Below are positions 10,981 through 30,717 of a DNA stretch of 48,498 nucleotides, piece by piece. Made by a program: the position numbers and the translations under genes. The notes beneath the pieces are model-generated. The model was not told the DNA's origin. It saw nothing but the letters and a program-made list of their open reading frames with translations, and did not search any database. Within the stretch, counting starts at the first letter, position 1. Each line of letters opens with the position of its first letter. Origin of the DNA: Thermoleophilia bacterium (lineage in GTDB: Bacteria > Actinomycetota > Thermoleophilia > RBG-16-64-13). Location of the stretch: positions 1 to 48,498 of the forward strand of contig JADGPI010000132.1 in NCBI GenBank assembly GCA_017882525.1, written 5' to 3'.

Positions 10981-13581
10981 CTAGAGGTCGCGCCCGGTGT
11001 CGGTCTCGCCCGGTCCTTCGAGATCGTCGTCCAGTTCCTCGTCAAAGTTCTCGTCCGACTCTTCGGTGGGTTCGAACCCCTCGTCTGCCAGATAGTCCTC
11101 GGACAGACCGTCGACAGCGCCGTCACCATCAATGTGGCCATTCCCGTTGCCATCGGAGCTGGTCACTACCCGAGCCATACTGGACACCTTGTCCGCACCG
11201 CGCAGGTGCATGACCCGAACGCCCATGGTGTTGCGGCCTGTGGTACGAACGCTGATAACGGGAACCCGGATGACCGTGCCATCTTGGCTGATGAGCATCA
11301 GTTCGTGGTTGTTCCGCACCGAGGTCACGCCCACGAGGTCACCCCGGTCGGGGCTATCCTTGATTGTGATCACACCCTGGCCCCCGCGCTTCTGCGTGGG
11401 GTAGCTCGACGCCGGGGTCCGCTTGCCGTAGCCCCCGCTCGTGACGCAGAAGATGTCGGCGTCATCTTCGGCCACGGCCATTCCTATGAGCGAATGCCCC
11501 GCTGGGATGCGCATGCCCATCACGCCGCTGGTGTTCCGGCCCATGGGGCGGGCATCGTATTCGTGGAAGCGGATCGCCTTCCCCTCTGACGAGACGAGGA
11601 TGAGGTCGTCGTGACCGCTCGTGTGCCGCACGGCGACCAACTCGTCGTCGGCGGCCAGGTTGATGGCGATGATGCCGTCTGCCTTGAGAGACGTGGCATA
11701 GTCGAGGAAGCGGGTCTTCTTCACCACCCCCTGTCTGGTGGCGAACACCAGGTACTTGGCATCCGTGTAGTCCTTCGTGGCGATGACGGCCTTGATGTTC
11801 TCACCCTGTGCGAGCGGCAGCAGGTTCGCCACGTGCCGGCCCTTGCTTTGACGGCTGCCCAGCGGGAGTTCGTGAACCTTCACCCGGTAGATCTTTCCGC
11901 GCGAGGTTATGAAAAGCAGGAAATGATGAGTGGTGGTTATGAAGAGGTGCTCGATGTAATCGCCCTCTTTGAGGTCCATCCCCATGACCCCTATGCCCCC
12001 CCGGTGCTGCGTGCGGTAGGTGGAGACCGGCAGGCGCTTGACATACCCGGAGTTGGTGATGGAAATCACCATTTCCTCCACTGCGATCATGTCCTCGATG
12101 TCGATCTCGTCCTCGGAGGGCAGGATCTCCGTGCGGCGGTCGTCCCCGTACATCTGCTGGATCTCGAGCAGCTCCTCCTTGATCACCCCGTTGACACGGG
12201 ATTCGCTTCCTAGGATGTCTTCGAGATAGGCGATGCGCTCGAGAAGGTCGCGGTGCTCTTCTTCGATCTTGTGGCGCTCGAGGGCGGTCAGGTTCCGGAG
12301 ACGAAGGTCGACGATAGCCTGGGACTGTTCGTCGGAGAGCCCAAAGCGGGACATGAGCCCCATCTTGGCCGCCTCTGCGTCCTCGCTGGAGCGGATGATC
12401 CGGATGACCTCGTCCAGGTTGCTGATCGCTATCAGCAGCCCTTCCAAGATATGAGCCCGTTTCTTGGCCTTGTCGAGCTCGAAGCGGGTGCGGCGGACGA
12501 TGACGTCCTTCTGGTGTGCGATGTAATAGCGCAAAACGTCGCGTAGGCTGAGGGTCTTCGGCACTCCGTCGGCCAGAGCAAGCATGTTGACCCCGAAGGT
12601 GGACTGCATGGAGGTATGCTTGAAGAGCTTGTTGAGCACGACCTTGGGGATGGCTTCCCGTTTGAGCTCGATGACCACCCGCATGCCGGAGCGGTCCGAC
12701 TCGTCCCGCAGGTCGGAGATCTCGCTGATCTTCTTCTCTCGCACCAACTCTGCGATCTTTTCGATGAGCTGGGCCTTGTTCACCTGGTATGGGAGCTCGG
12801 TGACGATGATGGCCGTTTTGCCCTGCTTGATGGGCTCGGTGTGAGCCCGCGCCCGCACGACCACGCGGCCCCGCCCCGTCTCGTACGCCTCCCGGATGCC
12901 GGCGTGCCCCATGATCAGTCCAGCCGTCGGGAAATCGGGCCCTTTTATGTAGCGCATGAGATCGAGGCTGGTCAGGCTCGGGTCGTCGATGAGGGCGACA
13001 GTGGCGCCGATCGTCTCCCGCAGGTTGTGCGGCGGGATGTTTGTGGCCATGCCCACCGCGATCCCAGAGCTGCCGTTGACCAGAAGATTGGGGAAACGGG
13101 ATGGGAGGACTTTCGGTTCTTCCCTGCTCTCGTCGTAGTTGGGCGTCCAATCGACCGTATCCGCATCGATGTCGCGGAGCATCTCCACCGCGATGCGCGC
13201 AAGCCGGCACTCCGTGTAGCGCATGGCCGCCGCGGCGTCCCCGTCCACGGAGCCGAAGTTGCCGTGGCCGTCCACCAGCGGATAGCGGATAGAGAAGTTC
13301 TGGGCCATCCGCACCAGCGCGTCGTAGATGGCCTGGTCGCCGTGGGGATGGAAGTTCCCCATGACGTCCCCCACGATCCGCGCACATTTGCGGTACGGCC
13401 GGTTGGGCTGCATGCCGGAATCGTGCATGCCAAACAGCACCCGACGGTGGACCGGCTTGAGGCCGTCGCGTACGTCGGGCAGCGCGCGGCCGACGATCAC
13501 GCTCATGGCGTAATCGAGATAGGACGCGCGCATCTCGTCCGCTATCTCGATCTGCTCTATCTTGCCCTGCAGTGTCTCCAT
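10981..13581 (-). CDS. gyrA: DNA gyrase subunit A
   Basis: [40 protein letters not shown] catalytic Tyr, GyrA-box QHRGGIG, acidic tail. Confidence 0.98.
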
Positions 13582-13630: not shown

Positions 13631-15862
<2,232 letters not shown>

Positions 15863-16056: not shown

Positions 16057-16689
16057 TCACTTGTCGCGACGAGCTGCAAACGCCGCCTTCATCGCTCTCA
16101 GTATCTGCTCCCGCAGGCGCTCGTCTGCGCACATATGCTCGACTTCCGCCAGCGCGGCGGCCTCTTCGGCGCTCGGCCGGAATACTCCGGCCGCCGCTCC
16201 CTGGGGCACTTGCCCCTCGTCCGCTGGAGACACCCGTGGCGGCGCCTCCCAGCCTGCGTGACGGAAGACGATCTCCTTTACTGTGTCCTCTCCTAGCGAC
16301 CGGTTCAGCTGATCTTGGATCTGCTCTCTCATGAACTGGAGGGTCTGGGCCCACACCGGCGAGGAGGTTGCCACCACAAGCCTCCCTTGCCTCAACTGGA
16401 GAGGCCGCGCGTTCGCGGCTATGTCGCCACCTACCAGCCCTTCCCAGACCCTCGCAAGCCCTCTCTCCAGCCCGTTCCTCGCCGGGAGGGACCGAGGGAC
16501 AGCCCGCCTCGTCTCGGTAGCTGAGGCATCGTCCGCCGAAGCAGGCACAAGTACGTCGCCAAGAAGATCCCCAAGCTTGGTGAAGTCACCGCAGTCGTGG
16601 TGGCTTCCGCCGGCCCCGTTCTGACGGGCGCCGGCGCCGCGGGCCTCCCGGCCGGACCCTTCGCCGTCCTGTTTTCCGCGCCCGCTCAT
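16057..16689 (-). CDS. DUF721 / DciA family protein
   Basis: LARVWEGLVGGDIAANARP...GRLVVATSSPVWAQTLQFM...I..LN..LG...VKEIVF; lies between recF and gyrB; ATGA overlap with recF. Confidence 0.85.
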   Translation of the reverse strand: MSGRGKQDGEGSGREARGAGARQNGAGGSHHDCGDFTKLGDLLGDVLVPASADDASATETRRAVPRSLPARNGLERGLARVWEGLVGGDIAANARPLQLRQGRLVVATSSPVWAQTLQFMREQIQDQLNRSLGEDTVKEIVFRHAGWEAPPRVSPADEGQVPQGAAAGVFRPSAEEAAALAEVEHMCADERLREQILRAMKAAFAARRDK

Positions 16690-17789
16690 GTCCGGACCAG
16701 CGTCTCCGGACGGGAAAGATCGACCACATGAGCCTCGCTCAACTCCTCGGAGGAGAAGTGACTAGGGTCTGTCGTGGTGATCACCGTCTGCCCGCCCTGA
16801 CTCAAAAGCGCGACCAGGGCCCGCCGCCGGCCCGTGTCCAGCTCACTCATCACGTCGTCCAGAAGAAGCAGTGGTTGTGAGGACGATCCGCACAGATACG
16901 CCCATTCCGCGAGAACCAGGGCAAGTACGGCCGCCCGTTGCTCTCCCTGCGATGCGCAGTCGCGCATGTCGAGCTCCCGGCGCACGAGACGCAAGTCGTC
17001 GCGATGAGGGCCCAAGTGGGTGAAGGTCCGTTGCTGGTCGGCCGCTCGGGAGGCCACCAAGCGGCTCTCATACGCCTGTTCGTCCATGTCGCCGACGTTG
17101 GTCCTATAGACCAGTCTCACCGAATCCGCGGGCTCGCCCGTGAGCTCGGCGTAAGTGACTTGGAAGGAACGCACGAACGAAGCGAGTGCCGCGCTGCGAC
17201 GGCTGACCACGGCGAGCCCGGTCTTGGCCAGCATGGCATCCCAGGGGGAGTACTGATCGCCGGCATCCCCATGCCTGGCGGAGCGGAGAAGAGCGTTGCG
17301 TTGCGCCAGGGCCTGGTCGTATTGGCGAAGGACGCTCCTATAGTCGGGTTGGCACCGGGAGCACAGGGTGTCCAGATACTCACGGCGCCGCCGGGGACTA
17401 CCCTTGATAAGACGGAGGTCGTCAGGCAAAAAACTCCGCACCGGCACCCTGCCCTCCCAGCGCGAAAAATCGTCAAGCACTGCCCCGTCGGCGGTGGCTT
17501 TCCGCTCCCCGTCCCGGGACATGGCAACAGCCGCTATGACGATCGCGCCCGCTTCCTCGAGGGTTGCTTCCACGCGTAGGTAGTCCTGGCCGTGTGTCAT
17601 GAGGTCCCGCGGAGTGCCCGGCCGCAACATCGACCCGCACAGCACGATATTGGCCGCCTCCAGAACGGTCGTCTTCCCCGCGCCGTTCAGTCCAACAAGG
17701 ACGTTCAGGCCCGGCTGCAGCGCTACTTCAAGCTCTCTGTGCGCCCGCAGATTGGTGAGACGTAGTGCCCGGACCAGCACAGGTGTCAC
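16686..17789 (-). CDS. recF: DNA replication/repair protein RecF
   Basis: Walker A GLNGAGKTT, GSPRRRR, QRNALL, GPHRDD, SQGEQR, LLLLDDVMSELD. Confidence 0.95.
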   Translation of the reverse strand: MTPVLVRALRLTNLRAHRELEVALQPGLNVLVGLNGAGKTTVLEAANIVLCGSMLRPGTPRDLMTHGQDYLRVEATLEEAGAIVIAAVAMSRDGERKATADGAVLDDFSRWEGRVPVRSFLPDDLRLIKGSPRRRREYLDTLCSRCQPDYRSVLRQYDQALAQRNALLRSARHGDAGDQYSPWDAMLAKTGLAVVSRRSAALASFVRSFQVTYAELTGEPADSVRLVYRTNVGDMDEQAYESRLVASRAADQQRTFTHLGPHRDDLRLVRRELDMRDCASQGEQRAAVLALVLAEWAYLCGSSSQPLLLLDDVMSELDTGRRRALVALLSQGGQTVITTTDPSHFSSEELSEAHVVDLSRPETLVRT

Positions 17790-18085
17790 GCCCCTCGCGG
17801 GCCGCTCGAGCCTCCAGGCTTGCCGCCAGGCGCCGTATGATCCCTGCGTGGCGACCGGTCTCGGGCCTCCGAGGCCCCGCTTTCTTCCACCCTTACCTCA
17901 GCCCCCGGTACCGCGACGACGTCGCCGACCGCGAGTTTCCGGCCGCGTCGGTCCTCGGTCTGACCGTTGACGCGAACCTGGCCGGAGAGAACCAGGGCCT
18001 TCGCATCGCCGCCGCTGCCCACCACTCCCGCGGCTTTTAAGAATTGCCCCAGGTTGATGGGGAGAATCACCGCGATCCCGGTCAT
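17786..18085 (-). CDS. S4-domain RNA-binding protein (YaaA/YbcJ family)
   Basis: INLGQFLKAAGVVGSGGDAK...VRVNG..EDRRGRKL..GDVV; overlaps the dnaN stop and the recF start. Confidence 0.9.
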   Translation of the reverse strand: MTGIAVILPINLGQFLKAAGVVGSGGDAKALVLSGQVRVNGQTEDRRGRKLAVGDVVAVPGAEVRVEESGASEARDRSPRRDHTAPGGKPGGSSGPRGA

Positions 18086-19185
18086 TCGTTCAGGCGGATG
18101 GGCATCACCAGATAGAGAAAGTCGTCGCCCGCACCCTTCAGCAAGCCCGGCCGTAGCGGGCTGATGAGACGGAGATATACCGGAGATTCCTTGACAGCGG
18201 CGACCCCCGCTTCCAGGAATTCCGGGTTGAAGCCGATTTCGAGGTCTTCGCCCTCGTAATGGACGGGCATCGCTTCGCGCGCCCTCCCAACATCCTGCGA
18301 CTCAGCCGAGACAGTGAGATTGTGGTTGGAGAAGTGCAGGCGAAGAGGTGCGTTCTTCTGCGCAAGCAGTCCGATGCGGCGGATGGCCTCCAAGAGCTCC
18401 TCCCGGTCGACGGCAACCTCATAGTCGAAGGTATCGGGGATCAGCTGCTTGTAGTTGGGGAATTGCCCGTCGATCAGCCGCGAAATGATCGACACGCCTC
18501 CTAGCTCGAAGAGCACCTGGTTGTCGGTGGGGACGATCTTGATGTGGTCGTCCGAGACTGCCGCGGCCACTCGTGACAACTCGGTCAAAGTGCGGGCCGG
18601 GATGATCGCCTGGAACTTTTCGCTGACAGACGACTCCACCGGCGTCTCTTTCACACTCAAACGATAGCTATCCGTAGCCACCATCTTGACGGAGTTCTTC
18701 GCGAAGTGGATCTGAACGCCGGTGAGCACAGGCCTCGTTTCGTCGCGAGAGGCTGATGGGGTAACTCTGTCGACGGTCTCGATGAATGCCGCTTTCTCTA
18801 CTGAGAACCCGCCCTCAGGAAAAATCGGGAACTGCGGGAAGTCCGCGGCCGCGAGGGAATGAAGGACAAAGACAGATTCGCCGGCACGGATCTCCACCTG
18901 TGTCTCTCCAGGGCGTTGCTCGATGACAACGTCTCCACTTGGAAGACTGCGCGCTATGTCAGTGAGTATGCGTGCCGGAAGAACCAGCGCGCCGGGTTGC
19001 TCCACTCTACCGGCCAGAGGCGCCTTGATCGAGATTTCCATGTCCGTTGAGCAGACCACGACCCGATCTTCTCCTGCATCCACCAACACGCCGGACAGAA
19101 CTTGGATCGAGCTCCGAGAAGACACGGCCTTGTTGGCGACAGCGAGACATTCAACAAGTGAGGGTTTATTCGTGATCAGCTTCAT
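18082..19185 (-). CDS. dnaN: DNA polymerase III beta clamp
   Basis: STDMEIS, ASRDETRPVLTG, VATDSYRL, SRLIDGQFPNY, IGFNP, YLVMPIR. Confidence 0.97.
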   Translation of the reverse strand: MKLITNKPSLVECLAVANKAVSSRSSIQVLSGVLVDAGEDRVVVCSTDMEISIKAPLAGRVEQPGALVLPARILTDIARSLPSGDVVIEQRPGETQVEIRAGESVFVLHSLAAADFPQFPIFPEGGFSVEKAAFIETVDRVTPSASRDETRPVLTGVQIHFAKNSVKMVATDSYRLSVKETPVESSVSEKFQAIIPARTLTELSRVAAAVSDDHIKIVPTDNQVLFELGGVSIISRLIDGQFPNYKQLIPDTFDYEVAVDREELLEAIRRIGLLAQKNAPLRLHFSNHNLTVSAESQDVGRAREAMPVHYEGEDLEIGFNPEFLEAGVAAVKESPVYLRLISPLRPGLLKGAGDDFLYLVMPIRLNE

Positions 19186-19199
19186 CGGTGCTCCTCGCT

Positions 19200-19470
19200 G
19201 ACGAGCGGTTGCTGGTGGATCGCTTATTACTATTAGATTGTTTAGAGAGAAATATAGCGGGTGTGATAAGGACTGTGGAAGGCGTTGATAAACACTACGA
19301 AAGCGGCCGGAGCAGGGACGGAGGGCTTTGCTGCCGGCCGGTTGGTTGTGGAGCCGCGGTGGACAACCGAGAACAAGGTGTCGCCGGACTGAGAGCGCTT
19401 GGAGAATGGTCCTGACTCTGCACTGCCTCTCCCTGTGTTATGCGCAAGCACATGTGGATAAGTAATCGTG
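19200..19470. other. oriC unwinding region (dnaA-dnaN intergenic)
   Basis: Perfect DnaA box TGTGGATAA 19453-19461; degenerate boxes near 19274-19291, 19358-19366, 19438-19446; AT-rich tract 19224-19257. Confidence 0.8.
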
Positions 19471-19506
19471 GCGATTCGGCCCCAGCGTTGCGACGCCGGG
19501 GGGCTC

Positions 19507-20958
19507 TTACCGAGTGCTTTTGACCTTCGTGGTCACCCGCTGGACCAGGTTGTACATCTCTCTGTTCTCCCGCATCAACCTCGTGATCTTGTCGACAGCG
19601 TGGAGGACAGTCGTGTGATCCCTGCCGCCGACTCGCTCGCCGATCTTAGGCAGGCTGGCGTCGGTTAGCTCACGTGCAAGATACATGGCTATATGGCGCG
19701 CTTCGACTACCGGCCGGGAGCGCTTGTCACCGGTCAGTTCCGTTATGGACACTCCTGTAGTCTCGGCCACCGTAGATAGGATCAGCTCTATCGTGATGCG
19801 TGACGAGGCGGTCTCGGGGATGTCCTTCAAAACCTCCCGCGCCGATTCTACGTCGAGCGGCCTGTTGCTGAAGGAGGAGAAAGCAACGACGCGCGTGAGG
19901 CAACCCTCGAGTTCTCGGATGTTACTCGGGACTCGGGAGGCGATGAAGGTGAGAACATCGTCATCCGCGAGCCGGATGCCTTCGATACGGACTTTCTTCC
20001 GAAGGATAGCGATCCTCGTCTCCAGGTCGGGCGGCTGGATGTCGGTTATCAGACCCCATTCGAACCTTGACACCAACCGGTCCTCCAACGTGCGGAGACC
20101 TTTCGGGTGGCGGTCTGAGGTGATGACGATCTGTTTGCCGGAGTCGTACAGGGTGTTGAACGTGTGAAAGAACTCTTCCTGCGTCTGCTCTTTCTTCTCG
20201 AGAAACTGGATGTCGTCGATAAGCAGAACATCATTGGTGCGGTAGCGATTCTTGAACCCTTCGATGCTGTCGTCTCGGAGCGAATTGATGAAGTCATTGG
20301 TGAACATCTCGATGGTCACATAGCGCACCTTGAGATCGGGGGCGTTCCGAAGGACGTATTGGCCTATGGCCTGGAGGAGATGGGTCTTGCCGAGGCCGAC
20401 GCCCCCGTAGATGAAGAGGGGGTTGTAGGCTGTGCCGGGGCTCTCCGCTGCCGCCAACGCCGCGGCATGCGCGAAGCGGTTCGAGGGACCGATGACGAAC
20501 GTATCGAACGTGTATCTGTCGTTGAGTCCCACAGCAGACACAGGTGCGGCCGGCGGCGTGGACGCCGACGCCGAGCCTCGCCCGGACGTGGCGGTCGTTC
20601 GGGTGCCCTGTCGAGCGCCGCTTCGCGGGCCAGTTTGGTCTGTGCTCGGGTGCGGGCTCGCGACCAGAGAGGCCGGCTCTTCTTGGCTGAGTGACTGCGA
20701 GAGCTCATGGGAGACTACGATGCGACAGCGCACCGCGTCACCGACGACTTGGGATACGGCATCGGCGATGAGCGCTTGGAAACGAGCGTCTATCCAATCC
20801 TTCGCGAAGTCCGAGGGAACTCCGACTGTGTACGTGTCGTCGAGCAGGCCCAGGCCGACCGTGGCGTCGAACCAGATGCGGTATGTCCCTTCGTTCACCT
20901 GCTGGGAGATGAGCTTCAGAGCCTCTTCCCAGATAGGATCATTGGTGGCCTTGTCCAA
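19507..20958 (-). CDS. dnaA: chromosomal replication initiator DnaA
   Basis: YTFDTFVIGPSNRFA, YGGVGLGKTHLL, DDIQF, SRFEWGL, NIRELEG, GGRDHTTVLHA; start TTG 20958 after SD GGGAGG. Confidence 0.98.
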   Translation of the reverse strand: MDKATNDPIWEEALKLISQQVNEGTYRIWFDATVGLGLLDDTYTVGVPSDFAKDWIDARFQALIADAVSQVVGDAVRCRIVVSHELSQSLSQEEPASLVASPHPSTDQTGPRSGARQGTRTTATSGRGSASASTPPAAPVSAVGLNDRYTFDTFVIGPSNRFAHAAALAAAESPGTAYNPLFIYGGVGLGKTHLLQAIGQYVLRNAPDLKVRYVTIEMFTNDFINSLRDDSIEGFKNRYRTNDVLLIDDIQFLEKKEQTQEEFFHTFNTLYDSGKQIVITSDRHPKGLRTLEDRLVSRFEWGLITDIQPPDLETRIAILRKKVRIEGIRLADDDVLTFIASRVPSNIRELEGCLTRVVAFSSFSNRPLDVESAREVLKDIPETASSRITIELILSTVAETTGVSITELTGDKRSRPVVEARHIAMYLARELTDASLPKIGERVGGRDHTTVLHAVDKITRLMRENREMYNLVQRVTTKVKSTR

Positions 20959-21072
20959 GAGAGCCCCTCCCGACCATTGAGCAGCATCGAACACGAGCGA
21001 CAGATGAGGCACGCCCGACAGCGTCGTCAATCCCGCGAGTCGCTCTCCCCCAGAGCCGAGCGCCCGCCAGGT

Positions 21073-22044
21073 TCAGAGTACCTCGTCCAGGTAAGCCAGG
21101 CCCGCGTCCGTGACCACCCGATGGCCGCTCGCCCTAGAAGAGACGAATCCCTCATGTTCCAAGGCGACGAGGTCACGGTAGGCGGTCGACGTCGCAACCC
21201 CGAGTTCCTCGGCGATACGGGTCGGACCCACCGGAGCGAGCTCCACCGTCAGGAGCAAGGTCTTAAGCTGGCGCTCGGGGAGATTATAGGTCGGGACCGC
21301 TCGAGACGCGAGAGTCTTCTCCGGCGGAAGAGCGACACGAACGGTAACCACGGTGCCCCGGCCCAGGTTGTCCTCTATCTCAAGAGCGCCGTCCAGACTG
21401 CCCAGGGTCTCGCGGATCACGGAGAATCCCGAGCCCACCCCTCTGATGTATTGCTTTGCCGCGGCATCCGCGGATGTGAATCCCGGCTGAAGCACAGCCT
21501 CTTTGTCGCGGATCCCGGGACCCCGATCCGAGACCCTAACAGTGTTGCCCCGGTCGAGGATCGTGACCACCACACCTTCGAAAGATGCATGGACGAGATT
21601 GTCCACGAGCTCTCGCAGCACCGGGTAGGGCAGTCTGCCCCCTTGTTCCTTCGCCAATTCGTAGACGCGAGTGGTGATGGCATCCAGGAGCTGTGGAAGG
21701 CGCGTCTCCGCGATGGAGACCACTAGGGGTGGATGGTGGGAGTCTTCGTAAAGGGCTATGCGCGGCGGCTCGCGCTCCAAGCCGGGCCAGGCAGGCGGAC
21801 TTTCGTGTAGGCTCTTCCCGTCCGTCCGCTCTTCGCCGGAATAGCTGCCGCCGATCGGAGTCTCGCCCGGGCGCGGCTCACCCTGGATCCCAAGGTCGGA
21901 GCTCCTGGCCACGGGCGTCTCCCATCGGTCCTTGTGTCGAACTTCGCTCTGACTACTCCCCGGCTGCACAGGGGCCTGCGCAGTGGGCTCCGTGGGGGCG
22001 GAGCCGTGCGGGAGGCTTGAAGTGGTGGCCTCATCGGCGAGCAT
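21073..22044 (-). CDS. GHKL (HATPase_c) ATP-binding protein fused to a C-terminal winged HTH; start uncertain
   Basis: N box RELVDNLVHA, G1 SDRGPGI, PGFTS..RGVGSGF, GRGTVVTV; HTH GPTRIAEELGVATSTAYRDLVALEHEGFV plus wing GHRVVTDAG. Confidence 0.85.
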   Translation of the reverse strand: MLADEATTSSLPHGSAPTEPTAQAPVQPGSSQSEVRHKDRWETPVARSSDLGIQGEPRPGETPIGGSYSGEERTDGKSLHESPPAWPGLEREPPRIALYEDSHHPPLVVSIAETRLPQLLDAITTRVYELAKEQGGRLPYPVLRELVDNLVHASFEGVVVTILDRGNTVRVSDRGPGIRDKEAVLQPGFTSADAAAKQYIRGVGSGFSVIRETLGSLDGALEIEDNLGRGTVVTVRVALPPEKTLASRAVPTYNLPERQLKTLLLTVELAPVGPTRIAEELGVATSTAYRDLVALEHEGFVSSRASGHRVVTDAGLAYLDEVL

Positions 22045-22103
22045 GGCTTGAAGTGGTCCCCCCGAGCGCGGCAGCAGATAGCACGTGCCAAGAATGCCTC
22101 GCC

Positions 22104-22134
22104 ATTGTAGCGAGAGCACCGGACATTTTCCACA
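22104..22134 (-). promoter_or_regulatory. putative promoter of the GHKL-HTH/dnaA unit with a DnaA box over the -35
   Basis: TGGAAA (22132-22127)-17 nt-TACAAT (22109-22104); DnaA box TTTTCCACA at 22126-22134. Confidence 0.55.
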
Positions 22135-22643
22135 GGGCGTTCTGGCACCGAAGCGCGGAAATGGGCATCATTCTGTTATAAAAGTCGGCACGTAGCGATA
22201 CTTTGCCAGGCTCCTAGACCGCAGTTTTGCAGGTATAACGTTTGGTTATCAACAACATCCTCCACAGGTGTGGAAAACGTGCAGAATGGCAGAACGTTAA
22301 CCCCGCATACACCACCTTTTCTGGGGATAGTGGGGAAAGATGATTTCGTAAGGAGACGTTGTGGCCAACTCAAAGCGGGGTTTATGTGGAGATGGGAGGC
22401 ATGCTGACCGCCCCGGATCGACTTTGTCGGGGGCTCAGAGCGCTGATGGGGGGTGAGCAGTCTCCTTTTGGCCTGATTCAAGGGCCCCGATGGTGGGTCC
22501 TGGAACTCCGTGAGGTCTGGCCTATCTCGAACAGGTCGCGGGGTGCGCCCTGGGCGTGCGGCTGATCAGTTGAATCCACAACCCACGCCGGTGCCTCTGT
22601 CCGTTCTCGCGGCAATCCGAGAGGCTTATCCACAGAATCCACA
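22126..22643. other. upstream DnaA-box cluster (second part of oriC / regulatory region)
   Basis: TTTTCCACA 22126, TTATCAACA 22246, TCCTCCACA 22258, TGTGGAAAA 22269, TGGGGATAG 22322, TGTGGCCAA 22360, GAATCCACA 22572, TTATCCACA 22626, GAATCCACA 22635. Confidence 0.8.
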
Positions 22644-22752
22644 GGAAGCCTGTGTACGCCTGGGGCAGCGCGGCCGGACGCGCGGTGGGTCATAGTGGAA
22701 GAGCCGGAGACTAGCCGGCGGAGCGTCGGATGCTCGCACTACCGGCGTGTGA

Positions 22753-22781
22753 TTGACGGCGGGCTGGCCGACTTGTATACT
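22753..22781 (+). promoter_or_regulatory. sigma70/SigA promoter of the rpmH operon
   Basis: TTGACG-17 nt-TATACT about 100 bp upstream of rpmH. Confidence 0.75.
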
Positions 22782-22881
22782 TCGCGACCCTCTTACATGG
22801 CTGTTTGGGATGTTCCGAGGTGTTTTCATAGTGCGCGGCCGCCTTGTGGTGCTCGCGGTGCTGAGCGATAAGTGAGGAAAC

Positions 22882-23016
22882 GTGAAAAGGACGTATCAGC
22901 CGAACAAGCGCAAGCGGAAGAAGACCCACGGGTTTCGCGTGCGTATGAGCACAAAAGCAGGCCGGGCGGTTCTGAAGCGCAGGCGCGACAAGGGCCGCAA
23001 GCGTCTTTCGGCCTAG
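22882..23016 (+). CDS. rpmH: 50S ribosomal protein L34 (absent from the ORF track)
   Basis: GTG start; [44 protein letters not shown]. Confidence 0.98.
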
Positions 23017-23022
23017 TATGGC

Positions 23023-23421
23023 GTGACTCGGTCTCGCGGCCGGCTGTCTCGCTCTGAGGACTTCGCCCGCGTCTACCGGTCGGGCCGGTCTGTTGCCAAT
23101 AGGTATCTCGTTCTATACTATTTCGAGCGCCCTCCGGCCGCGAGCGCGGGCGACGGCGCAGGATGTCCCAGGGTGGGGTTCTCAGTCTCAAAGCGCCTTG
23201 GCTCAGCAGTCGACAGAAATCGCATCAAGCGCGTCCTGCGCGAGGCGTATGGTTTGAATGGTCAGTCCTTCAGGGGGAACATGGACTTCGTATTGATCGC
23301 GCGCGAGCCTCTCGCCGAGCTGCTATCGGCGGAAGGCTTCAAAGCTGTGGAAGCGAAGATGATCGAAGTCTTCCGCAAAGCTTCTCTTTTGGCGCCTCCG
23401 GAGCACCTATCCACGTTGTGA
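23023..23421 (+). CDS. rnpA: ribonuclease P protein component
   Basis: RLSRSEDFARVY, RVGFSVSKRLGSAVDRNRIKRVLRE (RNR motif). Confidence 0.95.
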   Translation: MTRSRGRLSRSEDFARVYRSGRSVANRYLVLYYFERPPAASAGDGAGCPRVGFSVSKRLGSAVDRNRIKRVLREAYGLNGQSFRGNMDFVLIAREPLAELLSAEGFKAVEAKMIEVFRKASLLAPPEHLSTL

Positions 23422-27253: not shown

Positions 27254-28762
27254 ATGATCATTAGGGAGCCAAGTGAGCCAAGGGAGCCTTGCCTGGACTC
27301 TCGTCTGGAGTCTCACGCGAGTGGCGCGGTCTTCCCACTCACTGACGGCAGTCGTGGATCTGCCAGCGATGCGCCCCTCGCGGGTACTAGTGCGGGCGAT
27401 CGGCTTGAGGTCTTGATCGTGGGCGGCGGAGTGTCGGGCTGCGCTTGCGCAGCGTCCCTGGCGGTCGCGGGAGCAAGAGTCATACTCGTTAACAGCGCCC
27501 TGGACGTTCTGGGCCTGCCGGGACACGGTCCGGCATTGTTGCCATGTCGTGGCGGCGGGTGGAGCGAGATAGGCGAAGTGTTAGGCGGGCTCCCGAGCCG
27601 TCTTCGGTGGGCGTGGCTGTGTTCGGCGAGTGTCCCCATTGATGGGAGCCCCTGTTTGCTTGTCGACCGACGAGCTGTGAGTTTAGAAGCGAAAAGGGCC
27701 CTTGAAGGCGTCGCCGGGATAGAGTTCCGCCAAGGTCTCGTCGTCGATGTGAGGCCAGCCAAGGGAGGTGCTGCGAACGTGGAGACCAGCGTTACCCCTG
27801 CCCCGGGGAGCGCGCCGGAGGGTGAGAGCTCTGGGAGGAGCAGCGGCGCCGTGCAGCCTGATCGTCGGCGGGTGGAGGTCGTCACCGCGTTCGGGGAGGT
27901 GTTTGCTGGCGACGTAGCCATCATTGCGGTGGGCCTCGGCCTTGGCGGGCGCATCCTGGTCGGCGACGACTCCATGGCCGGCGGCAGATACGGCGAAGTC
28001 GCTGCCGACTTGCTGATGCAGTCCCTCGAAGACCAGGGGGTCAAGTTCCAGTCCGTGGAAGTGGACGAGGGAAGACGGATCTCTGGTAGCAGGTTGGGTA
28101 GCCTCGAGCGTGCCGGGAGGAGGCTGAGTAAGCGCGACGTCGAAGGGACCATTACCGCGCGCTCACTAACAGCCGCCCGGCCAACAGCGGCCTCGTCGGC
28201 CTCTGCGCCACTTGATGATGGAGCCGATCGGTTTCCCGGGGAGCTGCTTGAAGCCCGAGAGGCCCTATTGCGCGTCGCCATGGGCACGGAGGTTGGCGAC
28301 GCCATGGAGCGAGATTCTTGGCGGATGGATTACCCGCTTGCCCCGCACAGGATGGATGAGCTTCGGCGACGCGGGGTGGTGCTGCATCTCAGGACGGCGT
28401 CGCTGGGTGCAAACGGGTCCGAGCCGCTCGTGAGCCCGGATGGCGGCGCTACCGGCGAACTCTATGTTTCCGGGGAGGGTCTTGCAATTCTGGAGGAGGA
28501 CCTCCCGGCGGCTCGGCTGGAGCACGTGATTACCGCCGAGGTGATCGCCGATGCGCAGGGAGGGGGAAGAGTCGCGGAGATCGACGGTGTCTGGGTGGTC
28601 GGCCAGGCGGCCGGAGCAAAGGGGTATCTGGACAGTCTTCAGTCAGGCATAGAAGTGGCTCGCGCGATCATGAGTGACTATCGGACACAAAAGGAACACA
28701 TGATGGCCGGGGGATCGCCGGGGCGTCGCGTCCCCGGACTCGGAAGAAGTAGTTGGTCATGA
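27254..28762 (+). CDS. divergent MnmG/GidA paralogue (FAD-binding part only); start uncertain
   Basis: VLIVGGGVSGC, AVGLGLGGRILVGDDSMAGGRYGE, GVWVVGQAAGAKGYLDSLQSG align to MnmG; no catalytic Cys motifs and no C-terminal domain. Confidence 0.75.
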   Translation: MIIREPSEPREPCLDSRLESHASGAVFPLTDGSRGSASDAPLAGTSAGDRLEVLIVGGGVSGCACAASLAVAGARVILVNSALDVLGLPGHGPALLPCRGGGWSEIGEVLGGLPSRLRWAWLCSASVPIDGSPCLLVDRRAVSLEAKRALEGVAGIEFRQGLVVDVRPAKGGAANVETSVTPAPGSAPEGESSGRSSGAVQPDRRRVEVVTAFGEVFAGDVAIIAVGLGLGGRILVGDDSMAGGRYGEVAADLLMQSLEDQGVKFQSVEVDEGRRISGSRLGSLERAGRRLSKRDVEGTITARSLTAARPTAASSASAPLDDGADRFPGELLEAREALLRVAMGTEVGDAMERDSWRMDYPLAPHRMDELRRRGVVLHLRTASLGANGSEPLVSPDGGATGELYVSGEGLAILEEDLPAARLEHVITAEVIADAQGGGRVAEIDGVWVVGQAAGAKGYLDSLQSGIEVARAIMSDYRTQKEHMMAGGSPGRRVPGLGRSSWS

Positions 28763-30717
28763 CCCGAAGAGAGTGGACATACGACGTCCTGGTGGTTGGC
28801 GGGGGTCACGCGGGGTGTGAGGCAGCCCTCGCATCGGCCCGCATGGGATGCCGCACGGCCCTGATTACGCTCAGCCTCGACAAGATCGCGCTCATGCCCT
28901 GCAATCCCGCGATCGGCGGAGTCGGAAAGGGTCAACTAACTCGAGAGATCGATGCATTGGGGGGAGAACAAGGACGCAATACCGACAGGGCGTTCATCCA
29001 GATCAAGATGCTCAATACGTCAAAGGGTCCCGCTGTGCGGGCGCTGCGTGCGCAGGCCGACAAGAGACTCTACGAGGACTGGATGAAGGTGGTGTTGTCG
29101 AGAACCCCTGGGCTTGACCTGGTCCAGGGCGAAGTCGCGAAGCTGATTGTTTCACGTGAAACAATCAAGGGCCTGAGGCTTGCCGACGGCCGAGTGCTCT
29201 CAGCGAGGGCCGTCATACTGGCGACCGGGACCTTCCTGCGCGGAAAGATCGTCATCGGAGACAAGAGTTACGCAGCGGGCCGTGTCGGTGAACTCCCCGC
29301 GCAGCTCCTCTCGGAAAGCTTGCGCGCGGAAAACCTTGAGCTGGCCAGGTTTCAATCCGCCACTCCGCCCCGCATCGATGGGAGCACCATCGATCGGGAG
29401 CGAATGCTGCTGCAAGTGGGCGACCCTGGGAGCCTTTCGTTTTCTCATTGGGAGGTACCATCCCCGCGGACACAGGTGCCCTGCTACCTCACTCACACAA
29501 CAAGGCGCACACATGAAGTAGTTGCGAAGCACCTCCACCTCAGTCCATTGAAGAGCGGCTCCGTTAGCGGGAAAGGCCCCAGATACTGCCCGTCGATCGA
29601 CAGGAAGCTCATCAACTTCCCAGATAGAGAGCAGCACCCCGTTTTCGTCGAGCCCGAAGGCATCATGACGAAAGAGATGTACCTGCAAGGCTTGACGACA
29701 AGTCTCCCCGTTTTCGTTCAGGAGATGATCATTCGCGCCACGCCCGGGCTTGAACGTGCGCGGTTGGTGAGGCCAGGGTATGCGGTCGAGTACGACTATC
29801 TCCCGCCTGAGCAGCTTTCGCTGACCCTGGAGACCAGGGCCGTTCACGGTTTGTTCTCGGCCGGTCAGCTTAACGGCACCTCGGGCTATGAGGAAGCGGC
29901 TGCCCAAGGGCTCATAGCTGGGATCAACGCAGCACTTCAGGTGAAGGAGGAGCCGCCTCTGATTCTTCGGCGCGACCAGGGGTATATCGGCGTGCTGGTC
30001 GATGACCTGGTGACGAAAGGCGTGGATGAGCCCTACCGGATGTTCACGTCTCGGGCTGAATATCGCCTGCTGTTGCGTCACGACAACGCTTCGCAAAGAC
30101 TCTCTTCCATAGGCCACTCGCTTGGGCTTATCGGCGAGGCGCAGCTTGCCAAGGTCGACGAGAAGGAACGGCAGATCCGCGAGTACGGAGAGATGCTGGA
30201 AACGTCTTGTGTCAAGTCGAGCCCAGAAACCGACGAGCTACTAGAAACGCTGGGGACTGCACGGCTCGAGGAATCGCAGACCGCAGCAAAGGTCCTCAGG
30301 CGGCCCCAGGTCACCTTCGACCAGCTGTTGAGTATGTTGTCGCAGCATGACCGCGAGCGATTGGAGACCGTTCCGACCGAGGTGCTCGAGCAGCTTCTCG
30401 TCCACGCTCGCTACGAGGGTTACATTCGCCGTCAACTGGCAGAGATCCGCCGTCACCGCGCTACAGAGACCATGGCTATTCCTTCAGACTTCGACTATGC
30501 GCCCCTGGAGGGGTTGACTTTCGAAGCAAAGGACAAGATGGGTCGTCTTCGTCCTGCGACCCTCGGTCAAGCGTCGCGTATACCCGGTGTCTCACCGGCC
30601 GACATTTCGGTTCTCCTGGTGCACGTTCACCGGGCGGGCGCAGGGAGAAGCAGGCCAAGGCGCCATTCGGGCGCGGAAATCACGGTAGTCGAGGGGGAAC
30701 CCCCTGAGACTTGCTGA
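28759..30717 (+). CDS. mnmG: tRNA uridine-5-carboxymethylaminomethyl(34) synthesis enzyme MnmG
   Basis: GGGHAGCEA, MPCNPAIGG, GPRYCPS, AGQLNGTSGYEEAAAQG, YRMFTSRAEYRL, ASRIPGVSPAD. Confidence 0.96.
   Translation: MTRREWTYDVLVVGGGHAGCEAALASARMGCRTALITLSLDKIALMPCNPAIGGVGKGQLTREIDALGGEQGRNTDRAFIQIKMLNTSKGPAVRALRAQADKRLYEDWMKVVLSRTPGLDLVQGEVAKLIVSRETIKGLRLADGRVLSARAVILATGTFLRGKIVIGDKSYAAGRVGELPAQLLSESLRAENLELARFQSATPPRIDGSTIDRERMLLQVGDPGSLSFSHWEVPSPRTQVPCYLTHTTRRTHEVVAKHLHLSPLKSGSVSGKGPRYCPSIDRKLINFPDREQHPVFVEPEGIMTKEMYLQGLTTSLPVFVQEMIIRATPGLERARLVRPGYAVEYDYLPPEQLSLTLETRAVHGLFSAGQLNGTSGYEEAAAQGLIAGINAALQVKEEPPLILRRDQGYIGVLVDDLVTKGVDEPYRMFTSRAEYRLLLRHDNASQRLSSIGHSLGLIGEAQLAKVDEKERQIREYGEMLETSCVKSSPETDELLETLGTARLEESQTAAKVLRRPQVTFDQLLSMLSQHDRERLETVPTEVLEQLLVHARYEGYIRRQLAEIRRHRATETMAIPSDFDYAPLEGLTFEAKDKMGRLRPATLGQASRIPGVSPADISVLLVHVHRAGAGRSRPRRHSGAEITVVEGEPPETC
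29148..29163. promoter_or_regulatory. parS centromere site within mnmG
   Basis: Perfect palindrome TGTTTCACGTGAAACA, about 2.3 kb from parAB. Confidence 0.92.

Follow-up and report, generated by a model that had tools for sequence, protein, structure and literature searches.

What does a gene of roughly 320 codons do in front of dnaA, at a place where other genomes mostly have a short non-coding spacer? The window (the whole 48,498-nt stretch of DNA analysed here) carries such a gene, hereafter gene X, between rpmH and dnaA (Table 1). In genomes lacking it, 278-671 nt separate rpmH from dnaA in 13 of the 15 loci with an adjacent rpmH, and the other two have distances of 1075 and 1422 nt. An ATP-binding module and a winged helix, placed together directly before dnaA in the relatives examined, make protein X a strong candidate, judged from sequence, for a new regulator of chromosome replication; our best guess is that it would act as a nucleotide-dependent, DNA-anchored regulator at the dnaA promoter or the origin.

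Table 1. Features of the rpmH-X-dnaA region (positions are those of the window)
Feature	Position	Strand	Remarks
rpmH	22882..23016	plus	Divergent from gene X; promoter-like site 22753-22781
Perfect DnaA box TTATCCACA	22626..22634	plus	In the rpmH-X spacer
Head-to-head inverted DnaA-box pair TTTTCCACA-CC-TGTGGAGGA	22258-22277		Element spans 22246..22277
DnaA box TTATCAACA	22246-22254		Adjoins the inverted box pair
DnaA box TTTTCCACA	22126..22134	plus	One mismatch; overlaps the -35 of the X promoter-like site
Promoter-like site, X-dnaA unit	22104..22132	minus	-35 TGGAAA 22132-22127; 17-nt spacer; -10 TACAAT 22109-22104
Gene X CDS	21073..22044	minus	323 aa from ATG 22044; stop codon 21073-21075
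Variable N-terminal tail	21793..22044	minus	About residues 1-84 of the 323-aa form; predicted disordered
GHKL (Bergerat-fold) ATP-binding domain	21325..21792	minus	Pfam HATPase_c; model pLDDT >90
Flexible linker	21286..21324	minus	About 13 aa; pLDDT dips to 62
C-terminal winged helix-turn-helix (MarR/IclR/TrmB-like)	21076..21285	minus	Last 70 residues; recognition helix S-T-A-Y-R-D-L conserved
dnaA	19507..21030	minus	Next gene downstream of X; Pfam Bac_DnaA (4.6e-76), Bac_DnaA_C, DnaA_N
dnaA-dnaN spacer	19186..19506		Perfect DnaA box 19453-19461; most AT-rich stretch of the region, 19216-19255

Gene X is genuine and present in one copy per genome. The length of about 320 aa proposed by a sequence-only reading of the locus fits the form that begins at the in-frame ATG, while the longest open reading frame (21073..22119, minus strand) would yield 348 aa from a GTG at 22119, a codon that sits between the -35 and -10 of the predicted X promoter. 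All 103 positive genomes returned either one match or two pieces of one gene. The same reading had put the gene 114 bp upstream of dnaA and on the same strand; the shared orientation stands, but a gap of 114 nt holds only if dnaA begins at an in-frame TTG at 20958 (behind GGGAGGGG), and the longest dnaA frame begins with a TTG at 21030, 42 nt after the X stop codon.

The linkage of X to dnaA is near-absolute. Among the close relatives with an X orthologue (E < 1e-30) the gene lies directly upstream of dnaA and co-oriented with it in 30 of 30, and one family among them keeps this adjacency although rpmH is not next door. The same arrangement recurs in 79 of 80 public loci (the remaining one breaks off at a contig end 461 nt further downstream), in 65 of 65 further phylum-sample genomes with a listed dnaA row (compared by eye) and in all ten loci examined from the most divergent X families. 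Homologues scattered away from dnaA would have spoken against a role in replication, and no such scatter was found, with the phylum-level tally standing at 75/75 of the X-positive genomes compared (65 + 10). Gaps between the tblastn matches of X and dnaA ran from -41 to +148 nt in 78 of 79 loci (347 nt in one); several loci have candidate dnaA starts at -4 to +9 nt relative to the X stop, and in locus L123 the two reading frames overlap by 8 nt.

Within deep Actinomycetota X follows particular clades, of Thermoleophilia, Coriobacteriia and Rubrobacter type, and 103 of the 301 genomes sampled have it. Most of the 198 negative genomes come from large families in which this profile did not detect it. 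A second phylum (CSP1-3-type, neighbouring Actinomycetota) carries it in 56 of 61 genomes. The search for related loci used a 27-row X alignment. Among 8000 candidates that were scored, 728 proteins matched X at E <= 1e-3; homologues also amounted to 298 clusters at 50% identity (E <= 1e-30), with a Coriobacteriia-type member as query returning 4403 clusters at 90% identity (E <= 1e-20). As the sequence-only reading had proposed, genes named 'ATP-binding protein' do precede dnaA in Coriobacteriia: the orthologue in locus L121 has the same sequence as an 'ATP-binding protein' that NCBI lists for Arabiibacter massiliensis, and named close relatives of it come from Gordonibacter, Rubneribacter and Raoultibacter. 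An extension of the range to Firmicutes was rejected; the titles of L099 and L116-L118 (Clostridia/Eubacteriales) are no evidence for it, because the sample taken around L116 returned the contig coordinates of the window's own phylum sample.

A fixed position could also mean that X is an ordinary transcription factor with targets unrelated to replication, kept in place only because the dnaA promoter is a stable site of constitutive expression. Hitch-hiking of this kind rarely outlasts phylum-level divergence, whereas X holds its position in two phyla, even where rpmH has moved; moreover, it is always single-copy and no other position was found in the genomes compared.

The predicted protein consists of two confidently modelled domains behind a disordered tail (structure model: pLDDT 93, pTM 0.74; GHKL and MarR-like winged-helix folds). 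In the tail the AlphaFold2 pLDDT falls to 39-59 without secondary structure, and its sequence is unconserved even within a genus, as alignments begin at about residue 63-113 of the 348-aa form. Pfam assigns residues 165-264 to HATPase_c (E 4.4e-12; 46.9 bits, threshold 26.4), and the domain has a conserved strand-strand-helix extension at its N-terminus (PRIALY...PP) followed by the motifs ExxxN, DxGxG, PGF and GxGxG. Read directly, the ATP site comprises RELVDN for ExxxN (E170, N174), DRGPGI for DxGxG (D198) and GVGSGF for GxGxG (G227-G231), and GRGTVV is also present. The residues N174, D198, G200, G202, G227, G229 and G231 are invariant in 122 X sequences and likewise in a 75-sequence alignment, while E170 is invariant in the 75 and nearly so in the 122. 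The ATP site is thus intact and its key residues invariant, as had been read from the window.

At the C-terminus, Pfam recognises HTH_IclR at residues 296-327 (26.8 bits against a cut-off of 22), the MarR model staying under its threshold (15.4 against 24.6), and R315 of the winged helix is invariant in the alignments. MarR-type proteins, among them the DNA-bound MarR 5h3r, match the fold with Z 11.8-12.3 (rmsd 1.1-1.8 A, about 70 residues); in contrast to MarR and IclR factors, X has the minimal winged helix only, without the MarR dimerisation helices or the IclR effector domain. Across the family the Pfam assignments are those of a generic winged helix, which is compatible with an ordinary transcription factor: HTH_IclR in 45 and TrmB in 41 of 75 members, with matches spread over IclR, TrmB, MarR and ArsR. 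The two domains are joined by a tether whose length varies from about 13 to about 350 aa (the upper end by domain positions in the long forms); it measures about 100-170 aa and is rich in Pro, Gln and Ala in L121 and L123, whose sequences we read directly. Of 16 long relatives (419-708 aa), 15 showed the order HATPase_c, gap, C-terminal winged helix. The Pfam scan of these 16 disclosed no fusion or extra domain of the Rosetta-stone kind beyond these two, and no further Pfam domain in the gap, which in L121 and L123 is low-complexity linker.

Sequence comparison draws X towards histidine kinases. The solved structures closest to it in sequence are kinase CA domains (KinB 3d36, E 4.5e-9; HK853 3dge, 6e-7), which together with ThkA (3a0t) share with X a Bergerat fold with N, G1, F-like (PGFT) and G2 motifs, and fold matches to such domains reach Z 10.3-11. 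X differs from the kinases in lacking a DHp/HisKA domain, a phospho-acceptor helix, a sensor domain and a cognate regulator, and in carrying its own DNA-binding domain. No HisKA-type family was detected in it by Pfam at E <= 0.1, and before the N-box helix the model has two strands and one helix, without a helical hairpin. The description of X as a standalone GHKL ATP site with no HisKA and a C-terminal winged helix is therefore borne out by Pfam, the structure model and the fold matches alike; a receiver partner is missing too, the conserved neighbours being rpmH, dnaA and dnaN only, with no receiver-domain gene among the window genes scanned. X might nonetheless belong to a split or degenerate two-component kinase as its catalytic half and phosphorylate a separate DHp/His-containing partner, as the solved-structure matches and the partial NCBIfam matches (all to kinase CA regions, with no kinase model near its cut-off) would allow. 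We consider this very improbable: the strand-strand-helix extension takes the place of the DHp hairpin in the model, the conserved neighbourhood holds no response regulator or DHp-like gene, and a C-terminal DNA-binding domain is atypical for a kinase.

A different enzymatic role is suggested by SpoIIAB and RsbW, which, like X, are small standalone GHKL folds carrying an ExxxN motif, their N-box helix preceded by an N-terminal strand and helix (1l0o_A: Z 11.2, rmsd 3.4 A, 129 of 141 residues aligned). Unlike X, SpoIIAB has no DNA-binding domain. X could be a DNA-tethered enzyme, its winged helix parking the GHKL domain at the origin, where it would act in trans on DnaA or another origin-bound protein, either phosphorylating it on Ser/Thr in the manner of SpoIIAB/RsbW or binding it in an ATP-dependent way. 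Besides the SpoIIAB-type extension, the JGI name 'anti-sigma regulatory factor (Ser/Thr protein kinase)' on many members points this way; a tether of 13 to about 350 aa suits reach from a DNA anchor better than an allosteric switch, and a physical or enzymatic partner would be expected to show such absolute linkage to dnaA. Yet the SpoIIAB model is far from reached (TIGR01925: E 5.6e-5, with 23.1 bits where 135 are needed), HATPase_c_2 is unmatched at E <= 0.1 in Pfam, the ATP lid and F-box region resemble those of histidine-kinase CA domains, and no STAS or sigma partner gene occurs in the conserved neighbourhood.

Two further comparisons are structural. The GHL ATPases (GyrB, MutL, Hsp90, MORC) share with X the Bergerat fold and, in ExxxN, the catalytic Glu (E values for the N-terminal domains of MutL lie between 4e-6 and 1e-3), but X lacks the transducer domain that supplies a lysine to the gamma-phosphate; instead, the 13-aa linker and the winged helix follow its GHKL domain. 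Only one solved structure matches both halves of X in order, GHKL-like and then winged helix: PDB 3lmm, the protein DIP2311 of Corynebacterium diphtheriae. Foldseek aligns 257-270 columns at E 2.1e-7 to 1.4e-6, and none of the GHKL fold matches scores higher (Z 12.9, rmsd 2.9 A over 154 residues). The DIP2311 chains are longer (477-556 residues), with an extra N-terminal region before the matched part (residues 230-410), where X has its disordered tail; sequence identity is 17-19%, and the Pfam scan of X gave no matching family. As DIP2311 is an uncharacterised structural-genomics protein, the match says nothing on the mechanism of X.

Annotation adds little to this picture. X is named 'ATP-binding protein' or 'transcriptional regulator, TrmB' in the databases, apart from the JGI name given above, and its Protein Atlas clusters are labelled 'ATP-binding protein' or 'histidine kinase family' only. 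Membership of a defence system was considered and rejected, as PADLOC matched only the winged helix of CasR/Csa3-type proteins. Pfam and NCBIfam scans of X recovered none of the known DnaA or oriC regulators (YabA, SirA, Soj, Hda, DiaA, SeqA, MtrA, CtrA, Spo0A), and a full-text literature search, with subscription journals outside its coverage, found nothing on the gene family. A possible analogy is offered by the origin-binding response regulators MtrA, CtrA and Spo0A, which combine a DNA-binding with a sensing domain and act at DnaA-box regions; they sense through a receiver domain, whereas the sensing module of X would be the GHKL ATP-binding domain. Other DnaA regulators include YabA, SirA, Soj, Hda and DiaA/HobA, and most such regulators are not known to be encoded upstream of dnaA.

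The surroundings of gene X are marked by DnaA boxes. Five of the six matches in the window (<= 1 mismatch) fall in the two spacers that flank gene X and dnaA, although the total of six is not unusual in itself, being reached in 8 of 100 shuffles. Over 108 loci both of these spacers carry 4.8 boxes per kb, and coding DNA 0.23 per kb. Gene X has a conserved promoter-like site with a DnaA box at its -35: the layout of box/-35, 16-18 nt and TAnn[AT]T occurs on the X strand in 24 of the 108 related loci and on the opposite strand in none, the spacing histogram peaks at 17 nt, and the box/-35, the 17-nt spacer and TA(C/G)AAT are kept across loci while the spacer sequence varies. The box overlapping the -35 in the window had been called a consensus one; its position and the overlap are confirmed, but it deviates from the perfect consensus at one place. 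Consensus scans of the window revealed neither a terminator-like site on the X strand nor a promoter-like site between X and dnaA; such scans register consensus matches only, and an internal dnaA promoter inside X is possible. The view of gene X as embedded in oriC needs qualifying: the gene lies between two DnaA-box clusters, and the sole strongly AT-rich, DUE-like stretch (72% A+T over 40 nt) is found in the dnaA-dnaN spacer, which is the likely unwinding side of the origin.

We looked in the same regions for a signal specific to X. The palindrome TCCACA-NN-TGTGGA was rejected as an X operator because it is also found upstream of dnaA in genomes without X (the CCACA-NN-TGTGG element occurs upstream of X in 50 of 108 loci and upstream of dnaA in 11 of 20 X-less genomes). 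The k-mer and dyad surveys of 89-108 upstream regions yielded no operator distinct from DnaA boxes, returning only DnaA-box variants, the rpmH promoter and GC-rich background. The lack of a specific operator near the gene, like database names that go no further than 'ATP-binding protein' or 'transcriptional regulator, TrmB', agrees with an ordinary transcription factor; taken with the phylum-deep linkage, we regard this alternative as unlikely. No DnaA residue was seen to track the presence of X, one weak column apart, when 75 X-linked and 19 X-less DnaA sequences were compared (a small sample, confounded by phylogeny). This speaks against the DNA-tethered enzyme, which we consider possible but doubtful. 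Complex prediction from the X core and full-length DnaA (75-row alignments each) scored 0.24 and 0.25 against a mark of 0.32, in runs without controls, and weighs neither for nor against a complex.

We favour, with a probability of about 0.5, the reading in which X heads an X-dnaA(-dnaN) unit and is a DNA-anchored, nucleotide-controlled modulator of dnaA transcription and/or DnaA assembly. Gene X would be the first cistron of this unit, under the ancestral DnaA-box-controlled dnaA promoter; its winged helix would fasten the protein to the dnaA promoter/origin region, rich in DnaA boxes, and nucleotide binding by the GHKL domain would control self-association, which in turn may set the DNA avidity of two tethered winged helices. 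As an outcome, X would modulate transcription of the dnaA operon and/or the assembly of DnaA on the upstream box cluster. Co-transcription of X with dnaA, DNA binding at the locus, ATP-dependent dimerisation and an effect on replication are the inferred parts of this picture. The sequence-only reading had proposed an ATP sensor that would bind oriC or modify DnaA and tie initiation to the energy state; the structural side of that proposal is supported, and its functional side stays a hypothesis.

Several observations weigh against this preferred reading. There is no operator apart from the DnaA boxes in the regions surveyed, the sole conserved palindrome being shared with X-less lineages, and no DnaA position is specific to X-carrying lineages (in comparison with the 19 X-less sequences). 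Very long disordered linkers disfavour a rigid allosteric coupling of ATP to the winged helix. Control through dimerisation is an assumption; the closest sequence relatives are histidine-kinase CA domains, which to our knowledge do not dimerise by themselves. Operon inertia beside an essential gene can also keep a position.

A bolder version would make X an ancient origin-resident regulator, in which an ATP-driven GHKL dimer uses its tethered winged helices to clamp or bridge DNA in the bipartite DnaA-box region, coupling initiation and dnaA expression to the energy state independently of the DnaA ATP switch; it would have been present in the common ancestor of Actinomycetota and the CSP1-3-type phylum and lost in the X-less lineages. 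We put this forward tentatively, as a conjecture that is rather unlikely to hold in full.

What is understood about DnaA control comes from a few model bacteria and their lineage-specific factors, such as Hda, SeqA, DiaA, YabA, SirA, Soj, CtrA and MtrA, and we know of no dedicated DnaA regulator in deep-branching Actinomycetota. X keeps its position before dnaA across two phyla, with intact ATP-binding residues and a DNA-binding domain of its own. Should it prove not to be a regulator, its locus would be a striking case of operon conservation in need of another explanation; if it does regulate initiation, it would introduce a new sensing principle, a GHKL nucleotide-binding module, into origin control. 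The question can be put to a direct test, as carriers such as Rubrobacter xylanophilus and Eggerthellaceae from the gut are in culture, and a regulatory role would offer a handle on replication control in the Eggerthellaceae of the human gut and in radiation-resistant Rubrobacter.

Gene order in the window is that of a classical origin region, apart from one additional gene between rpmH and dnaA, the GHKL ATPase/winged-helix gene (hereafter gene X; residue numbers are those of its 348-aa form). The S4_2-domain gene shares 4 nt with each of its neighbours, dnaN and recF. On the plus strand, mnmE and the full-length mnmG (28753-30717) flank an extra ORF of 502 aa (27254-28762) that matches GIDA weakly (E 6e-15), perhaps a divergent paralogue or an enzyme of the TrmFO kind.

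Features of the origin region in the window, with the minus-strand genes in order of transcription
Feature	Position	Strand	Remark
predicted X promoter	-35 TGGAAA 22132-22127; -10 TACAAT 22109-22104	minus	consensus match
gene X	21073-22119	minus	longest ORF; first in transcription order
dnaA	19507-21030	minus	second, after X
dnaN	18082-19185	minus	third, after dnaA
S4_2-domain gene (yaaA-like)	17786-18085	minus	between dnaN and recF
recF	16686-17789	minus	after S4_2 gene
DciA-family gene	16057-16689	minus	between recF and gyrB
gyrB	13631-15850	minus	after DciA-family gene
gyrA	10981-13581	minus	last of minus-strand series
rpmH	22882-23016	plus	first of plus-strand series
rnpA, yidC, jag, mnmE, GIDA-like ORF, mnmG, rsmG, parA, parB		plus	after rpmH

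The sequence-only reading had taken X for a candidate replication regulator, a proposal that homologues scattered away from dnaA would have spoken against; it withstood the comparison, as X adjoins dnaA in nearly all loci compared. Among 40 close relatives, an orthologue (E < 1e-30) was present in 30 genomes, and in 30/30 it immediately precedes dnaA on the same strand (one adjacency spans the ends of a circular record); one family (three genomes) has no rpmH nearby and keeps X-dnaA-dnaN. One further genome (66% complete) is without both X and dnaA, and nine, from four other families of the class, hold just weak kinase-type matches located elsewhere. In the best 80 of 547 confirmed public loci dnaA is next on the same strand in 79, the exception (L076) being a contig that stops 461 nt past X. 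An even sample of the phylum yielded X in 103 of 301 genomes (E <= 1e-15; 11 genomes flagged unpublished are counted in, none of which matched), always as a single copy. All 65 positives with a listed dnaA position showed adjacency (compared by eye, the window's own genome excluded), three times across record ends. The most divergent families, fetched separately, had rpmH followed by X-dnaA-dnaN in 10/10; with the 65 they make up 75 of the 103 positives, the window's genome apart.

Within the phylum sample X is distributed clade-wise and nearly all-or-none, with positive families (e.g., 21/22, 20/20, 9/9) and negative ones (e.g., 0/20, 0/21, 0/21, 0/16). The record titles of positive loci name Thermoleophilia, Coriobacteriia, Humimicrobiales, Hakubella and further deep Actinomycetota MAGs, as well as 'Armatimonadetes CSP1-3', Sysuimicrobium and ANGP1. 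A sample of this second phylum around one CSP1-3-type genome contained X in 56 of 61 genomes (one of the 56 flagged unpublished), and eight of eight loci with titles of this kind were dnaA-adjacent. Loci titled Clostridia or Eubacteriales do not count as evidence that the range reaches into Firmicutes, since the sample around one such genome (G327, from L116) reproduced the window's own phylum sample. Named cultured carriers are Rubrobacter xylanophilus DSM 9941, where the L151 protein and ABG06121.1 (called 'transcriptional regulator, TrmB' or 'ATP-binding protein') are identical, and Arabiibacter massiliensis, with relatives in Gordonibacter, Rubneribacter and Raoultibacter. Databases name the family 'ATP-binding protein', 'histidine kinase' or 'anti-sigma regulatory factor'.

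Two genomes carry X in two pieces in different frames (G009:C2:44423-45143 and G222:C13:25469-26196), which could reflect a frameshift or an assembly error. In the families of loci L121-L128 (genomes G273, G066, G198, G134, G052, G121, G285 and G147) DnaA matches that of the window much more weakly (E 1e-44 to 1e-71, vs ~1e-110 to 1e-145 elsewhere in the phylum), four genomes of one family have no DnaA match at E <= 1e-40, and X was matched via its GHKL half only, within long open frames; both proteins look fast-evolving in these lineages.

Pfam places HATPase_c at residues 165-264 (E 4.4e-12) and HTH_IclR, over its cut-off, at residues 296-327, where TrmB, HVO_A0261_N and MarR match more weakly. 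No NCBIfam model came near its cut-off, the matches listed being pieces of kinase CA domains and SpoIIAB (23 bits vs a cut-off of 135). The first 80-110 residues are unconserved even within the genus and the N-terminal residues are predicted to be disordered (AlphaFold2, pLDDT 39-59); the conserved core starts near residue 119 (PRIALY), some 45 residues ahead of the Pfam domain. Residues 100-348 were modelled from 122 sequences (pLDDT 93, pTM 0.74) as a GHKL half (two strands and a helix, the N-box helix, then the remaining Bergerat sandwich), a short lower-confidence linker, and a three-helix winged helix with a C-terminal helix. N174, H177, A178, D198, G200, G202, G227, G229, G231, N251 and G255 are invariant in 75-122 sequences, and E170 is invariant in the 75-sequence alignment and nearly so in the 122-sequence set. 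None of the residues expected to bind Mg-ATP in the GHKL fold is missing from these columns; we take the roles from established knowledge of that fold. Within the winged helix, the recognition helix (STAYRDL) is strongly conserved, with R315 invariant. H177 (21589-21591; motif NLVHA), three residues past the Mg-binding Asn, is invariant in all alignments; histidine kinases have Lys in its place.

Among solved structures, histidine-kinase CA domains come closest in sequence (KinB 3d36, E 4.5e-9; HK853, 6e-7), with MutL, CheA, BCKD kinase and SpoIIAB next. The Pfam scan found no HisKA family in X, and we consider it very improbable that X is a split histidine kinase. In fold, X is most like Corynebacterium diphtheriae DIP2311 (3lmm), a protein without known function solved by structural genomics, to which both halves align (Foldseek E 2e-7, 257-270 columns). 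Its Z of 12.9 over 154 residues of the GHKL half (VIA-align) is within about two units of the remaining GHKL matches: SpoIIAB (11.2, 129/141 residues), NifL (11.1), ThkA (11.0) and HK853 (10.6). The last 70 residues resemble MarR-type winged helices (Z ~12, rmsd 1.1-1.8 A).

In L121 and L123 (Coriobacteriia-type) ~100-170 Pro/Gln/Ala-rich residues separate the two domains. HATPase_c was found in all 16 long representatives (419-708 aa) and the winged helix at the extreme C-terminus in 15, across a gap of up to ~350 residues in which no additional domain was detected in any of the 16. Gaps so long and variable indicate that the domains are tethered, not rigidly coupled.

The longest ORF starts at GTG 22119 (348 aa), and an in-frame ATG at 22044 (323 aa) is the likelier start, because a transcript from the predicted promoter would begin downstream of the GTG. 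The distance to dnaA likewise depends on the start chosen (42 nt to TTG 21030; 114 nt to TTG 20958, which is preceded by a good Shine-Dalgarno match). Consensus-match scans found no terminator-like site on the X strand within 18900-23100 and no promoter-like site between X and dnaA. A DnaA box over the -35, a 17-nt spacer and TA(C/G)AAT recur on the X strand in 24/108 loci (leaving out the window's own copy, outside the region boundaries used) and on the opposite strand in 0/108, with a sharp spacing peak and variable spacer sequences. A promoter-like site of rpmH lies at 22753-22781 on the plus strand (TTGACG, 17-nt spacer, TATACT), and its -10 region (CTTGTATACTTC, minus strand) recurs in ~21/89 related loci.

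DnaA boxes (<=1 mismatch; 108 loci, at least three genomes included twice) reach 4.8 per kb from rpmH to the conserved X core and 4.75 per kb in the dnaA-dnaN spacer, vs 0.23 per kb in X-dnaA coding DNA. The window has four boxes within 22126-22634 and a perfect one at 19453, and its dnaA-dnaN spacer holds the most AT-rich stretch, so X and dnaA lie between two box clusters, with the unwinding element probably on the dnaN side. A head-to-head box pair (TCCACA-NN-TGTGGA) occurs upstream of X in 50/108 loci (window 22258-22277, L024-L118, L132-L148), and never in the dnaA-dnaN spacer or coding DNA of the 108; its 2-nt spacer is exact, alternative spacings being almost never found. The palindrome was rejected as an operator of X, as it also precedes dnaA in 11 of 20 genomes without X; it thus belongs to the ancestral dnaA promoter, and resembles a conserved operator for dnaA autoregulation in Actinomycetota. 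In 15 of the 20 X-less loci rpmH is adjacent; 13 of these have it 278-671 nt from dnaA, and the remaining two at 1075 and 1422 nt. Together, palindrome and spacing indicate that X was inserted between an old dnaA promoter and dnaA, or lost from there.

X is a real, conserved, single-copy gene whose product combines an intact nucleotide site with a DNA-binding fold and a flexible tether. Its position is fixed: it comes first in the dnaA unit, next to a promoter-like site that a DnaA box overlaps. We reason that the winged helix would anchor X at the box-rich region, where the nucleotide state of the GHKL domain would govern its action. We favour control by nucleotide-dependent self-association, a mode compatible with long tethers. 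Taken as a whole, the reading of X as a regulator at dnaA/origin has, in our estimate, a probability of about 0.5. Against it count k-mer and dyad surveys of the upstream regions, which found no operator of X's own, and a comparison of X-linked with X-less DnaA sequences, which found no residue tracking X; moreover, kinase CA domains, its nearest sequence relatives, are to our knowledge not known to dimerise alone. The main alternative, which we hold less likely, is that X acts on DnaA as a kinase or binding partner tethered to DNA; a generic transcription factor kept by operon inertia is less likely still.

Full-text searching found nothing on the family, and within the literature searched there is no prior description of a GHKL sensing module at an invariant place in the dnaA operon; both domains, and origin-associated DNA-binding regulators as a kind, were known already. 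The analysis adds a second phylum to the range of X, puts names to cultured carriers, and describes the tether, the conserved promoter and a palindrome that is not specific to X.
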